Shown one piece after another: positions 20,159-28,863 of a stretch of DNA of 32,000 nucleotides. The notes below the pieces were generated by a model. It was given only the letters and a program-made list of their open reading frames with translations. It had not been told where the DNA came from and did not search any database. The position numbers were made by a program, and so were the translations under genes. Position 1 is the stretch's first letter; each line of letters starts with the position of its first letter. This stretch comes from Nostoc parmelioides FACHB-3921 (GTDB lineage: Bacteria > Cyanobacteriota > Cyanobacteriia > Cyanobacteriales > Nostocaceae), in contig NZ_JACJQL010000033.1 of NCBI RefSeq assembly GCF_014696625.1, positions 1 to 32,000 of the forward strand, read 5' to 3'.

Positions 20159-21382
20159 ATGCTACTAGGATTTAAGACAGAACTCAAGCTCAATAATAAG
20201 CAGCGCACTCAGTTGTCAAGGCACTGTGGCGTTGCAAGACACGCTTGGAACTGGGGACTGTCTTTAACTAAGCAGATACTTGACCACAACAAAATCAACC
20301 CAGAAGAGAAAATTAAATTTCCTTCAGCAATTGACCTGCATAAGTGGTTGGTAGCGATGGTAAAGCCTGAGCATCCCTGGTATTTTTATGTGTCAAAGTG
20401 CGCACCTCAATATGCCTTGCGTGACTTGCGAACAGCGTGGGATAGGTGTTTCAAGAAAGTGTCGGGTGTTCCTAAGTTTAAAAAGAAAGGGAAATTTGAC
20501 TCATTCGAGTTGGATGGAACCATTAAAATTCGTGGAACACGCAAAATCCAACTTCCCCGACTAGGTGCATTAAAAACCTATGAAGATTTGCCCCAGGTTC
20601 AACCCAAGTCAGTCACCATCAGCCGTACTGCTGACCGTTGGTACATTTCCTTTCGGATTGAGGTAGAGCCAAGGGACACGCCCAAAACAATTGATGTTGT
20701 AGGCGTTGACCTTGGCGTTAAATCCCTCGCCACACTTTCCACTGGTGAAGTGCTTGAAGGTGCAAAATCCTACCGCAAACTAGAGGCGAAACTATCTAGA
20801 CTCCAGTGGTTGAATCGTCACAAGCAACGCGGTTCAGCCAACTGGAGAAAAGCGCAAATCAAAATTGCAAAGCTGCATCAACGCATAGCCAACATCCGCA
20901 AAGACACATTACACAAACTTACTACCTATCTAGCCAAGAACCACGGCGTGATAGTGATTGAGGATTTAAACGTGTCTGGGATGATGGCGAACAGGAAGTT
21001 AGCTAAGGCAATAGCTGATATGGGCTTCTATGAGTTCCGTCGTCAGCTAGAGTACAAAACTCAGCTTTACGGTAGTGAGCTAGTAGTTGTAGACAGGTTC
21101 TACCCCAGTAGTAAAACCTGCTCCAATTGCGGAACAAAGAAAGAATCTCTATTACTATCAGAACGTGTTTTCAAATGCGAAAACTGCGGTTTTGAGTGTG
21201 ATAGAGACTTGAACGCCGCAATTAATTTGAGCCACTGCGTTGCTTTGGTTCCCAAAGTTGTAGCAAGTGGCGTGTCTAAGGCGGTGAGTCACGCCGTGCC
21301 AGCTTGTGGAGTGGATAACGCCGACGTTGCCACAGTGAAGCAAGAAGATTTCAGTTTGTTAGCAAACGTTAGTAAATTATGA
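20159..21382 (+). mobile_element. tnpB: IS200/IS605-family (IS1341-type) TnpB, an RNA-guided RuvC nuclease; no tnpA is present
   Basis: N-terminal GFKTELKLNNKQRTQL, RuvC D (VGVDLGV), E (VIVIEDLNV) and D (CDRDLNAAINL), zinc finger CSNCG...CENCG, and a typical tail ...ACG...VKQE. Confidence 0.92.
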
Positions 21383-25295: not shown

Positions 25296-26405
25296 ATGTC
25301 TGTTGTGGAAAATCATAAAATCGATCGAATTTTGGCTGTTGACGACACTAAAGATAATCTGATTTTAGTGCAAACAATTTTAGAAAGCGAAGGCTATGAA
25401 ATTGATTTAGCCAGTGATGGCATTTCAGCTTTGCAAAAAGTAGAACAGTCTCCACCGGATTTAATTTTATTAGATGTAATGATGCCGGGAATGGATGGTT
25501 ATGAAGTGACGCGACGCATCCGCAATAACCCAGCCCTAAGTTATATACCAATATTGTTGATTACAGCTTTTCACGAATCGAGTGTTGTGGAAGGTTTGGA
25601 CGTAGGCGCGGATGATTTCATTCGCAAACCATTTGATACAGATGAACTATTGGCTAGAGTGCGATCGCTCCTACGCCTCAAGCACAGTCTGGACGAACAA
25701 AAGAAAATGGCACGCCAAAGGGAAGACTTTGTGTCACGCCTGACCCACGATTTACGCACACCACTAGTAGCAGCCGATCGGATGTTGGACTTATTTCAAC
25801 AAGAAGCTTTTTGCAAAATTTCGCCAGAAATGAAACAGGCGATCGCTGTCATGATTCGCAGCAACCAAAATTTGATGCAAATGGTTAATACCTTGCTTGA
25901 AGTTTATCGCTTTGAAGCCGGTAAGAAAACATTAAATTATGAAACCTGCAACTTAAAAGAAATCGCTCAGGAAGTAGTTAGCGAACTCACAACTCTAACT
26001 AATGAAAAAGGTATCACCTTAAAAATAGATAGTAGTCACATAGATAACTTAGGCGAAAAAGCAGGTATAGTCATGGGCGATACCCTCGAACTACGCCGAG
26101 TGTTATACAACTTAGTAGCAAATGCCATCAAGTTTACAGACACTGGCGGCATTGAAATTCGCTTTTTTGAACCCAATAGTCATTGGTTAACAATTGAAAT
26201 CGAAGATACTGGTTATGGTATTGCGCCCGAAGACCAAGTAACCATTTTTGAGCGCTTTCGTCAGGGAAGAAATAAACGCTCAGGTAGTGGTTTAGGTCTG
26301 CATTTATCCAGTCGTATTGTTGAAGCGCACGAAGGTATGATTAGTTTGGTTTCTGAAGTAGGTAAAGGTAGTAAATTCACAGTCCAACTACCTAAAAATA
26401 TTTGA
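25296..26405 (+). CDS. Hybrid REC-HisKA-HATPase histidine kinase (second copy)
   Basis: ILAVDDTKDN and LLDVMMPGMDG (REC), THDLRTPLVAA (H-box), NLVANAIKFT, DTGYGI, GSGLGLHL. Confidence 0.9.
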   Translation: MSVVENHKIDRILAVDDTKDNLILVQTILESEGYEIDLASDGISALQKVEQSPPDLILLDVMMPGMDGYEVTRRIRNNPALSYIPILLITAFHESSVVEGLDVGADDFIRKPFDTDELLARVRSLLRLKHSLDEQKKMARQREDFVSRLTHDLRTPLVAADRMLDLFQQEAFCKISPEMKQAIAVMIRSNQNLMQMVNTLLEVYRFEAGKKTLNYETCNLKEIAQEVVSELTTLTNEKGITLKIDSSHIDNLGEKAGIVMGDTLELRRVLYNLVANAIKFTDTGGIEIRFFEPNSHWLTIEIEDTGYGIAPEDQVTIFERFRQGRNKRSGSGLGLHLSSRIVEAHEGMISLVSEVGKGSKFTVQLPKNI

Positions 26406-26468
26406 CGAGGAATTTCTCTGACTTCTGAAATTAAGTTATGGTCATTTAAAAAAAATGCAATAAATACT

Positions 26469-26502
26469 ATAGTAGAAGGGTATGAAATCACCCCTCTACT
26501 AT
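26469..26502. terminator. Hairpin between convergent genes (12-bp stem, one mismatch); possible terminator
   Basis: atagtagaaggg-N10-cccctctactat. On the minus strand a T8 run follows, about 13 nt away. Confidence 0.3.
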
Positions 26503-26608
26503 CATCTACTTGCAGACAGGATTATGGAATTTGGTGTATAGCTGTAGCCAGATAGATCAAGATATCAAGCTAAGATAAAATCCTGAAAATTAAAGGATTT
26601 ATAATCTG

Positions 26609-26664
26609 TCAACAGTCAACAGTCAACAGTCAACAATCAACAGTCAACAGTCAACAGTCAACAC
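26609..26664. repeat. STRR heptamer array TCAACAG x8 (two variant units)
   Basis: Counted directly. The heptamer and its orientation match the array at 9624-9690. Confidence 0.9.
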
Positions 26665-26681
26665 AGCTATAATTAACAGGT

Positions 26682-26858
26682 TTATTCACGGCGACAATCG
26701 TAGCAATAGCGACAGAAGTATCTATTTCTTCTCTCACCTCTATCACCTCGCTCCCCTCGGAATTCTTCATCTCTACGGTCTTGACCTCCAGCCAGAAATT
26801 GTTGTTCTTCGACGGATAAATCTATGAGTAAATCCGTTGCAAAAGTTTGAGTTGACAT
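26682..26858 (-). CDS. 58-aa secreted-peptide precursor with a double-glycine leader and an Arg/Glu/Cys-rich 33-aa core
   Basis: MSTQTFATDLLIDLSVEEQQFLAGG | QDRRDEEFRGERGDRGERRNRYFCRYCYDCRRE. GTGAGG lies 8-13 nt upstream of the ATG at 26858; the GTG start at 26873 used in the ORF track sits inside this SD-like sequence. The leader fits L-S-x-x-E-x-x-x-L-x-G-G. Confidence 0.6.
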   Translation of the reverse strand: MSTQTFATDLLIDLSVEEQQFLAGGQDRRDEEFRGERGDRGERRNRYFCRYCYDCRRE

Positions 26859-27038
26859 GATCGTTAGCCTCACTTACGTTAATAGGTGAATAACACCTAT
26901 GGTTTTATATAAGTAAGAATTTGCCGAGATTAAATTATACCCAAGCTAGAAATTAGAAAATTGAATTTCTAGCTTGAGATTGATGTAATAAGTAATGAGT
27001 AATACCAATTTTCTATGAAGTTGCACCCAATAAATGAT

Positions 27039-27066
27039 GTAGAGACTTTGCACGCAAAGTCTCTAC
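27039..27066 (-). terminator. Perfect hairpin 30 nt downstream of the SBP stop (GTAGAGACTTTGC-AC-GCAAAGTCTCTAC); probable terminator or Nostoc palindromic repeat
   Basis: 13-bp stem, read directly. On the minus strand it is followed by AUCAUUUAUU. Confidence 0.5.
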
Positions 27067-27096
27067 AGTTCAGAATAAAGCACTGTAATTATCCAA

Positions 27097-28863
27097 TTAC
27101 TTATTACTAAGAGGCTGGATTTGCCGCCAATCTTTAATATTCCACGTATCGGTATCCCAAGGAGTCAAGTCTACACCGACTAGTCTATTGCTCACACCAT
27201 TAACATCAGCACGGGCAATCAAGGGAATTAGAGCAATATCTTTGAATAGCAAATCATTCATCTGAATAAATAGCTGCCGACGTTTTTCAGGATTTAATTC
27301 TGTGTTGGACTGTTGCCAGAGCTTGTCATATTCAGGATTACAATAACGTGAATAATTAGATTTTGACCAGTTATTCTTTTTTTGGGGAATTTCGCTACAA
27401 GTAAAGCCTTTCATATAAGCACCAGGGTCTACATTAGTATTACCTGTACTAAACATTTGTAAATCAGCTTGAAACCTTCCCAATGTGTCTGGGTTCGATG
27501 GGTCTCCAGAAAAGAAGATACTACCATCAATACTTTTTAGTTCCACCCCGACACCAATAGCGGTTAATCCTTGTTTAATAATTTCCTGAGTTTTCTGCCT
27601 CACTGGATTTACAGATGTCTGAAGCAAAACATTCATCTCTACACCATTTTTGTCTCGAATACCATTACCATTTGTATCTTTCCATCCAGCTTCTTCTAAT
27701 AAATCAGTAGCTTTTTTGGGGCTAAATTCATATTTAGTATTAGGTGAGTTATAAATCTCTGGTGCTAATAAAATATTGGCGGCAGGACGACCACTAGAAC
27801 CATATAATTGTTGATTTATTGTGTCCCGATCAATCGCATAGTTAAATGCTTGACGCACTTTAATATCTTGAAAAAAGGGATGAGGAAATTCAGTACTGGA
27901 ACGTTCGCCGTCTTTTGTTTGTTTATCAGGGTCGGTATGATTGATGGTAATCCGTTCTAAAAAAGAACCAAAACTAATCTGTAATTTGCCTTTGCCTGCT
28001 GCTTCTAGTTGCTTGAGAATTGGGGCTTCTACTTGCAAGTTCCAAGCGTAGTCTACATCTCCAGTTTGTAGTACTGCTCTAGCGGCTGATGTTGCATCAC
28101 CACCACCCTTGAGTTCTACTCGCTTAAAGAAAGGTTTATTAGCTTCACGGAACAGAGAATTAGCTTCATAGATAATGGTGTCACCTGGTTTAAATTCTGC
28201 GACTTTATGAGGGCCTGTACCTACAGGAATCAAATTACCTGGGGCTTCCCTGGCGTTACTACCGTTAAATTTCTCAAAAATGTGACGGGGAATAATCATT
28301 CCATTTAAGCCCACAAAAGGTAGTGACCAAGCTGGGTTAGGACTGTGGAAATTAATTTTGACAGTGTAATCATCGATGGCTTCGACGCTTTTCACGACTT
28401 CGTAATTAGCGGAAGTGGTAGCACCGACAGCCGGATTGGAGAGAAATTTGTAAGTAAATACCACATCCGCAGCCGTAAAAGGTTGACCATCAGACCATTT
28501 GACTCCTTGCTTGAGTTTCCAGGTAACTGATTTACCATCTTTGGCTATACCACCATTTTCTAGAGTAGGTTCCTCTGCGGCTAAAAACAGAACCAATTTA
28601 CCGTCTTTATCGTGGCTGGCCAGGGGTTCATAGACGATACGGCTGGCTTCAAAGTCTTTAGATCCTTGGGCTAAGTGAGGATTGAGAATAGTTGGTGCTT
28701 GCCAATAGAGTAGACGTAAGTTTTCGCCTGCACTAGAGTTTGTTAGAGGTGTAGAAGTTGTAGGAGTTTCCGCCTGAGGAAAAGAACAACCAGCAAGGAA
28801 AAATATATTTAGTAACGACCAAGTAAAAATTTGACCCTGACGAAATTTATTCAAGATAACCAT
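27097..28863 (-). CDS. ABC-transporter family-5 (peptide/nickel/opine) substrate-binding lipoprotein; no adjacent permease or ATPase genes
   Basis: 588 aa with a lipobox FFLAGCS. Its size and motifs (WSDGxPFTAxDVxFT; YxxxxxxxDxxxR) are typical of OppA/DppA-like SBPs. Confidence 0.88.
   Translation of the reverse strand: MVILNKFRQGQIFTWSLLNIFFLAGCSFPQAETPTTSTPLTNSSAGENLRLLYWQAPTILNPHLAQGSKDFEASRIVYEPLASHDKDGKLVLFLAAEEPTLENGGIAKDGKSVTWKLKQGVKWSDGQPFTAADVVFTYKFLSNPAVGATTSANYEVVKSVEAIDDYTVKINFHSPNPAWSLPFVGLNGMIIPRHIFEKFNGSNAREAPGNLIPVGTGPHKVAEFKPGDTIIYEANSLFREANKPFFKRVELKGGGDATSAARAVLQTGDVDYAWNLQVEAPILKQLEAAGKGKLQISFGSFLERITINHTDPDKQTKDGERSSTEFPHPFFQDIKVRQAFNYAIDRDTINQQLYGSSGRPAANILLAPEIYNSPNTKYEFSPKKATDLLEEAGWKDTNGNGIRDKNGVEMNVLLQTSVNPVRQKTQEIIKQGLTAIGVGVELKSIDGSIFFSGDPSNPDTLGRFQADLQMFSTGNTNVDPGAYMKGFTCSEIPQKKNNWSKSNYSRYCNPEYDKLWQQSNTELNPEKRRQLFIQMNDLLFKDIALIPLIARADVNGVSNRLVGVDLTPWDTDTWNIKDWRQIQPLSNK

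Follow-up and report, generated by a model that had tools for sequence, protein, structure and literature searches.

In the class II bacteriocins and pheromones of Gram-positive bacteria (ComC, BlpC, the plantaricins), a double-glycine (GG) leader is cut by a peptidase-containing ATP-binding cassette (ABC) transporter (PCAT), and unlinked operons are joined into a regulon by a conserved promoter element; the cores, which are hydrophobic or amphipathic, are usually accompanied by immunity genes. The prochlorosins (ProcA) of Prochlorococcus and Synechococcus combine a conserved leader with hypervariable cores, and their scattered precursors are served in trans by a single machinery; their leaders are of the Nif11 type, and ProcM introduces the lanthionine rings. 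GG-leader peptides abound in cyanobacteria, yet a function is known for almost none. The one characterised set is that of EbfG1-4 and PteB in Synechococcus elongatus PCC 7942, where the EbfG proteins belong to the biofilm matrix and are not antibiotics (PMC4997328, PMC11345509), so that cyanobacterial GG peptides need not be bacteriocins. A census by Wang et al. in 2011 sought precursors within 20 kb of processing genes and stated that distant ones were missed (PMC3140520); the orphan gene asr3763 of Nostoc sp. PCC 7120 was beyond the reach of this cluster-based approach. Here we describe the orthologue of asr3763 on a 32,000-nucleotide stretch of Nostoc parmelioides FACHB-3921 (contig NZ_JACJQL010000033.1, positions 1 to 32,000; hereafter the window).

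The window gene is a genuine precursor-peptide gene with a GG leader, as an earlier note on this DNA had proposed and as the leader profile match and the conserved homologues bear out, and it is probably monocistronic. It is an ordinary kind of gene and not a new system; its interest lies in a conserved Cys/Tyr/Arg tail and in a family-wide regulatory cassette, of which limited literature searches returned no prior mention. The explanation that we favour overall, at a probability of about 0.68, is a GG-leader precursor of the Nostocales with its own promoter, which would be exported in trans by a PCAT and in which the tail would be functional.

Compared with the described systems, the window peptide is unlike the class II bacteriocins in its core (61% Asp/Glu/Lys/Arg), in having no immunity gene nearby, and in an element shared with its relatives that is a palindrome rather than a set of direct repeats. 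The proposed layout of its family resembles that of the prochlorosins, as one machinery would serve many scattered, hypervariable substrates; in contrast to these, the peptide has no match to an NHLP or Nif11 leader domain in Pfam or NCBIfam, and no maturase is encoded in the window or at related loci. With EbfG1-4 it shares no detectable sequence similarity, the ebfG genes adjoin pteB, and the window core (GRAVY, or grand average of hydropathy, -2.42) is without amyloid-prone hydrophobic segments.

A conserved coding gene with a double-glycine leader

The 58-residue open reading frame (ORF) reported by the earlier note was recovered and lies on the minus strand (Table 1). Its translation is MSTQTFATDLLIDLSVEEQQFLAGG|QDRRDEEFRGERGDRGERRNRYFCRYCYDCRRE (leader|core), the core ending in RYFCRYCYDCRRE, and a recount of the 33-residue core gave the same composition as before, 11 Arg, 9 Asp/Glu, 3 Tyr and 3 Cys. 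The leader follows the GG pattern at all positions claimed (G-1, G-2, L-4, E-8, S-11, L-12 and L-15). The Shine-Dalgarno (SD)-like GTGAGG is also present (26873..26868), but at -15 to -10 relative to the ATG and not at -13 to -8. Its GTG is the alternative start of a 63-residue product used for asr3763 in the PCC 7120 annotation (BAB75462.1), the ATG being five codons downstream. Since the N-terminus MS.Q is common to the whole family, the ATG would be the likelier start, and the start of asr3763 in PCC 7120 is probably mis-annotated.

Orthologues in PCC 7120 and Anabaena FACHB-709 are 81% identical to the window peptide, and those in Anabaena CCY 9910 and Trichormus variabilis 79%. In pairwise comparisons of three orthologues, 13 of 21, 14 of 22 and 9 of 13 differences fall on third codon positions, the replacements are conservative, and the single indel is of 3 nt and in frame. 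At each of the invariant Tyr and Cys positions of the tail, both synonymous codons are used among 12 subfamily members from several genera, and therefore selection acts on the amino acids and not on the DNA. These patterns mark the ORF as a real coding gene under purifying selection. They also bear on the least probable of the readings considered here, namely that the ORF is spurious, is a non-coding RNA locus, or encodes a small protein that stays in the cytoplasm and keeps its leader-like N-terminus uncleaved. Such a reading would account for the upstream non-coding DNA being as conserved as the ORF and for the lack of proteomic detection in those parts of the published datasets that were searched; trypsin, which would shred so Arg-rich a sequence, explains this silence. 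Against it stand the codon-level signature and the in-frame indel, the conservation of the amino acid sequence across genera despite divergent DNA, and a leader common to PCAT-linked genes.

The NCBIfam model NF038167 (CTB family bacteriocin) matches residues 1-28 (profile positions 1-25; E 3.3e-5) with 24 bits against a curated cutoff of 32, the leader alone aligning. A precomputed match of the orthologues to PF28158 (CTB) was graded weak, and a local copy of Pfam gave no match for the peptide or its orthologues. The likeness to CTB bacteriocins extends to leader type, taxa, HlyD-PCAT clusters and the upstream module, which also precedes a canonical 112-residue CTB gene of T. variabilis (PF28158; locus L058, found by nhmmer), and it points to common descent of the 5' part (promoter, untranslated region (UTR) and leader). 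In contrast, the window core is unrelated and ends in the C-x2-C-x2-C tail, the peptide is about half as long (58 residues, compared with a 72-position profile and the 112-residue product at L058), and at 13 loci the subfamily genes never stand in a tandem array or beside an exporter. Because the score is below the cutoff and the CTB core and clustered arrangement are lacking, we class the gene outside the CTB family, as what its sequence indicates to be a new core type of cyanobacterial GG-leader peptides.

Just past the stop codon, the 3' UTR contains eight tandem copies of the heptamer GTCAACA (TGTTGAC on the strand of the gene; window 26608-26663). At the orthologous loci there are two copies (PCC 7120-like) or none (CCY 9910), so the heptamer is a variable repeat and not a part of the gene; the ORF persists in these related genomes while the repeats around it vary.

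Table 1 Positions of the peptide gene and its associated sequence elements in the window
Feature	Position	Strand	Remark
ORF of 58 residues, span with stop codon	26682..26858	-	Orthologue of asr3763, Nostoc sp. PCC 7120
Leader, residues 1-25, MSTQTFATDLLIDLSVEEQQFLAGG	26784..26858	-	Predicted C39 cleavage after Gly25
Core of 33 residues: 20-residue zwitterionic Asp/Glu/Arg spacer, then 13-residue tail	26685..26783	-	
Tail motif R-Y-F-C-R-Y-C-Y-D-C (C-x2-C-x2-C)	26694..26723	-	Conserved
Shine-Dalgarno GTGAGG	26868..26873	-	9 nt before ATG; read from sequence; kept in most family members
Whole conserved non-coding module (promoter and 5' UTR)	26856..27005	-	Common to the peptide family
35-bp palindrome CAAGCTAGAAATT-N9-AATTTCTAGCTTG	26942..26976	.	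Abuts the -10 box; candidate regulator-binding site
-10-like box TATAAT	26934..26939	-	nATAAT in this position in most family members
5'-UTR inverted repeat ATAGGTG-N5-CACCTAT	26882..26900	-	RNA hairpin or operator
Terminator-like hairpin (26469-26502) and T-rich tail	26455..26502	-	Kept in three orthologous loci

The peptide family and its core types

Searched exhaustively with HMMER (threshold E <= 1e-3), a set of 1.84 billion representative proteins gave 38 hits, all of 43-78 residues, in which a near-identical leader, MSxQxxxSDLLVDLSTEEQQLLSGG, is followed by cores that differ greatly. Five of these (E 3e-15 to 2e-11), full-length relatives from other genera, share the tail Y-x-C-[RD]-Y-C-Y-[DK]-C, and both features on which the earlier note had rested its case, the leader and the Cys spacing, are thus conserved. 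Profile searches of a database of 5.8 billion proteins gave 75 and 98 clusters, and every cluster with a source-assigned taxon belongs to the Nostocales or is labelled a cyanobacterium. The genera comprise Anabaena, Nostoc, Trichormus, Desmonostoc, Komarekiella, Dolichospermum, Nodularia, Halotia, Aphanizomenon, Cylindrospermum, Cuspidothrix, Sphaerospermopsis and Umezakia. Scanning GTDB species genomes yielded 40 loci, which include neither PCC 7120 nor the genome of the window, with peptides of about nine core types by our own grouping. Its sequence makes the window peptide, with the tail RYxCRYCYDC, one of the core types in this family, which has been observed in Nostocales alone.

Within this subfamily the spacer varies in length and sequence (DR/DK repeats) and the tail is conserved, with Y47, C49, C52, Y53 and C55 invariant in 15 members from at least six genera. 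The earlier note had called the core unusually hydrophilic, which holds against classical class II bacteriocins but not within the family, where hydrophilic cores are the norm: eight other core types sampled are all hydrophilic (GRAVY -0.9 to -1.6), the window peptide being the extreme. The charged core is therefore a family trait rather than a peculiarity of this gene, and since charged cores are normal, PCAT-adjacent members included, hydrophilicity is a weak argument for signalling or metal binding. An AlphaFold prediction from an 11-sequence alignment had a predicted local distance difference test (pLDDT) score of about 50, and its sole predicted element was a helix at residues 16-23 of the leader; on its own the peptide is probably disordered.

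Several siblings with the same leader have cores of Gly/Tyr/Arg(/His/Trp/Phe) repeats (L019 6955, L033 7250, L040 7276 and L054 7210), for example GYGRGYGRGYGHHYGRRY, RGWGGYGRG and FGYGGYGGYGRGF. These low-complexity cores look more structural or adhesive than bacteriocin-like.

Exporter clusters in related genomes

At 20 of the 40 GTDB loci, an ABC protein of 720-790 residues is encoded just upstream of the peptide genes. The Pfam domains C39, ABC_membrane and ABC_tran were found in all five proteins tested, and the C39 motifs QLSEEDCGAACL (Cys) and HWVVL..DP (His) in all six inspected. In these clusters the PCAT gene is preceded by a gene for a HlyD-like protein of 500-560 residues, the peptides encoded directly downstream have the same leader as the window peptide, and the clusters examined contain nothing but peptides, HlyD and PCAT. 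The RYxCRYCYDC subfamily differs in its setting. The window gene is an orphan, as the earlier note had stated for at least 5 kb around it: no ABC/C39 exporter, maturase or immunity-like gene lies anywhere in the 32 kb and no small membrane-protein gene beside it, and the gene is likewise an orphan at all 13 subfamily loci, where no ABC-like ORF lies within 6-10 kb. Both the orphan gene and a PCAT cluster are present in at least six lineages: Nostoc sp. B(2019), Komarekiella atlantica, K. delphini-convector, Desmonostoc vinosum, Nostoc sp. MG11 and, counting different assemblies of one species together, T. variabilis. Because the orphan gene and a PCAT cluster with the same leader co-occur in genomes, export in trans is the economical reading and, with cleavage after Gly25, would be the best-supported mechanism.

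Enzymatic maturation before export is improbable. Under such a scheme, the gene would encode the precursor of a peptide synthesized by ribosomes and modified post-translationally (RiPP), in which the Cys/Tyr tail is cross-linked ahead of PCAT export, for instance by a radical-SAM or P450 enzyme encoded elsewhere. A short conserved Cys/Tyr-rich motif at the C-terminus behind a long variable spacer does resemble a leader/core layout, and cyanobacteria process scattered precursors in trans, as the prochlorosins illustrate. However, no maturase-type gene was found within 6-10 kb at the 13 subfamily loci, no Pfam family recurs there, the HlyD-PCAT clusters examined contain no genes other than those listed above, and the leader is of neither the NHLP nor the Nif11 type.

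A highly improbable alternative is a developmental signal of heterocystous cyanobacteria, such as a substrate of the PCAT HetC. The family is seen only in Nostocales; the HetC substrate is unknown, and the authors of one study raise the question of whether its gene lies elsewhere in the genome (PMC10986499); and orphans of this kind would escape a census confined to 20 kb around clusters (PMC3140520). Like PatS, HetN and PatX, the window peptide is small, Nostocales-restricted and Arg- and Gly-rich. Those peptides lack a GG leader, whereas RGSGR or RG[ST]GR motifs are absent from all subfamily sequences, the window peptide having RGERG and RGDRG. Moreover, the same leader occurs beside ordinary PCATs of 720-790 residues, which are more economical exporters, and PCC 7120 has many other GG peptides. 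The window peptide is one of many candidate HetC substrates and is not singled out among them.

In PCC 7120, alr1200 (HlyD), alr1201 (PCAT) and asr1202 have been named (PMC12267927), and by gene order they look like the equivalent, putative cluster. A convergent alpha/beta-hydrolase gene follows the HlyD-PCAT-peptide clusters of both T. variabilis (L058) and D. vinosum (L060), and because of this common neighbour the cluster may occupy a conserved chromosomal position in Nostocaceae.

A common promoter and 5' UTR module

Conservation of the roughly 150 nt upstream of the ATG equals that of the ORF, even where copies from different genomic contexts are compared. The order of elements in this module is the same family-wide: first a palindrome, then 2 nt downstream an nATAAT box, followed by an inverted repeat, the SD and the ATG. 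The palindrome is conserved in subfamily genes from differing contexts and recurs across the family in the imperfect form AAAGCTAGAA..TTCTA.CTTT. An nhmmer profile of the module found 70 sense-strand copies at about 45 loci, with one full copy in the window (E 4e-31); the profile was built partly from the same sequences, the window's included, so that such matches arise by construction, and at least 15 copies are new. All copies checked against ORF calls immediately precede a GG-leader ORF on its 5' side. A common promoter and UTR thus seem to be repeated in front of each peptide gene, an arrangement suggestive of a regulon.

The palindrome extends over the -35 region in the manner of an operator or class-II activator site, and the transcription start is predicted near 26927. 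A -35/-10 scan did not call the TATAAT, and no -35 match is present. Downstream, the inverted repeat stands 22-29 nt before the ATG in 22 of the 52 peptide genes listed, among differing core types. Its arms are stable in an RNA fold and pair in 81% of cells, but with little covariation, because of which an RNA hairpin cannot be separated from a DNA operator. From 29 UTRs, RNAalifold predicted no pairing beyond one of 3 bp (CCU/AGG), and an Rfam search of 26400-27150 gave nothing credible (best match E 0.46). In the predicted 5' UTR of the window (26850-26930, minus strand), pairing of UCUUACUUAU with GUAAGUGAGG can form a 10-bp helix around the conserved hairpin and so sequester the SD (minimum free energy -17 kcal/mol, z -2.87). 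As a general mechanism, SD sequestration was set aside, as alignment by eye showed the upstream arm to be unconserved outside the PCC 7120 clade.

Of the two arms of the inverted repeat, the right one, (A)TCACCT, is similar to the 16S rRNA 3' end, which is the anti-SD, and the left one, AGGTGAT, to an SD; one core type has the repeat as a perfect palindrome, AGGTGAT-N-ATCACCT. Two further candidate sites were rejected. The family box GGGATAAT, which reads GAGTATAAT in PCC 7120, has the G trio of the SigJ 'J-Box' (GGGaAtacT, PMC6495340) without its conserved A, and GTA-N8-TAC, a candidate site for NtcA upstream in the window, lacks conservation in PCC 7120.

At the other end, the hairpin and T tail at 26469-26502 probably terminate the peptide transcript. 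A second terminator-like hairpin (27038-27067, minus strand) follows just after the solute-binding protein (SBP) gene. It is part of an approximately 85-nt stretch without counterpart in the aligned PCC 7120-like and CCY 9910 fragments, a partial comparison, as these fragments start at or just before the SBP stop codon.

Model for expression, export and function

In the model that we favour, transcription would start from the gene's own promoter, the nATAAT box abutted by the palindrome, which is probably bound by a regulator common to the whole family. The leader would mark the 58-mer for a PCAT whose gene lies elsewhere in the genome, in the hlyD-PCAT-peptide cluster of the family, and the peptide would be cleaved after Gly25 and exported through the type-I-like PCAT/HlyD system. 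The product would be a disordered, zwitterionic peptide of 33 residues with a monoisotopic mass of 4345.96 Da, in which the Asp/Glu/Arg spacer may be a fast-evolving low-complexity linker and the conserved Cys/Tyr/Arg tail the functional part, acting outside the cytoplasm.

Several observations weigh against this model. The window holds no exporter, and the cognate PCAT is deduced from related genomes. The leader profile match is below its cutoff, and position -7 of the leader is Gln, where a hydrophobic residue is usual. The AlphaFold prediction is uninformative at a pLDDT of 50. A full-text literature search found no mention of asr3763, and neither expression nor peptide evidence for it was found in those portions of the proteogenomic and RNA-seq supplements that were searched. 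Finally, the tests run do not discriminate among extracellular roles.

By analogy, bacteriocin-like competition is the default role for a gene of this kind, and we retain it as a tentative first choice. A role in the extracellular matrix or in adhesion, as for EbfG, is possible, with less weight. Signalling and thiol-based metal or redox chemistry are each unlikely, and only a small chance is left to any other role.

The metal or redox idea is compatible with the export model and not an alternative to export: the three Cys of the exported peptide, flanked by Tyr, would serve as ligands for Zn, Cu(I) or another thiophilic metal, or link peptides through disulfides. All three Cys are invariant, as are three Tyr, and the odd number of Cys, which leaves a free thiol, makes intermolecular disulfides or metal binding plausible. 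The sole match in a PDB sequence search with the core, a CxxC-motif match that is insignificant at E 0.37, aligned it to the YFCRYC segment in the N-terminal part of dynactin subunit 4, a zinc-binding site. Some copies of the gene are near a ZIP transporter, tyrosinase or P-type ATPase gene, and the genes neighbouring asr3763, all3764-67 and orrA, are reported to be raised 2.7- to 5.6-fold in a PCC 7120 zur (furB) mutant (PMC12282138). However, such neighbour associations are inconsistent between genomes, there is no conserved fourth ligand and no Fur/Zur-box-like sequence, and the palindrome is common to family members without Cys.

A broader proposal, which we hold doubtful, sees in the family a co-regulated, hypervariable and hydrophilic secretome of heterocyst-formers, with the same operator, hairpin and leader on every gene, exporter-adjacent or scattered. 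The RYxCRYCYDC peptide, unlinked throughout and conserved to an unusual degree, would then be an extracellular thiol/Tyr factor of multicellular life, for signalling, metal handling or matrix cross-linking, rather than a bacteriocin, and possibly a HetC substrate.

For experimental work, asr3763 is a tractable orphan substrate for the PCC 7120 PCATs Alr1201, Alr5147, Alr7014, Alr1927 and HetC. The conserved palindrome and 5'-UTR hairpin could lead to the regulator of the whole peptide family, and the chemistry of the short Cys/Tyr/Arg motif is accessible through a synthetic peptide.

Genomic neighbourhood

The earlier note had suggested, speculatively, a secreted cue with its receptor among the neighbours, here taken as the adjacent orphan peptide-type SBP (orthologue of alr3762) and the nearby sensor kinases (all3764-67). 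The order SBP, peptide, convergent response regulator and histidine kinase genes (all3764-67, then orrA) is indeed kept in the window, in PCC 7120-like genomes and in Anabaena CCY 9910, and alr3762 is placed in the KEGG quorum-sensing map. These three genomes are close relatives, so their synteny weighs little, and the neighbourhood is confined to the clade of PCC 7120, T. variabilis-like genomes and the window. In other lineages the subfamily gene sits in unrelated contexts (D. vinosum, an Anabaena lineage with two assemblies, locus L013 and K. atlantica), and on this synteny test the suggestion fails. The neighbours in five other lineages include ThiS/aminotransferase/PNPOx, CbiJ/P-type ATPase, glycosyltransferases/LuxR and tyrosinase/rhomboid/ZIP; an SBP_bac_5 gene adjoins the peptide gene in none of them, and apart from ubiquitous response regulators no gene family recurs. 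Moreover, the peptide gene has its own promoter module, and the SBP gene its own terminator-like hairpin. A cue and receptor arrangement is accordingly quite improbable.

The segment 18804-26405 of the window corresponds to the orrA locus of PCC 7120, alr3768 (orrA) with the all3767-64 kinase/regulator operon. Between the orrA-like LuxR response regulator gene and a PAS histidine kinase gene lies a TnpB-like ORF (20159-21382, plus strand; IS605 OrfB, 407 residues) with HTH_OrfB_IS605, OrfB_IS605 and Cas12f1-like_TNB domains. No ORF of at least 100 residues, and so no TnpA candidate, is found beside it, and the PCC 7120-like locus L001 has only about 440 nt at the corresponding position.

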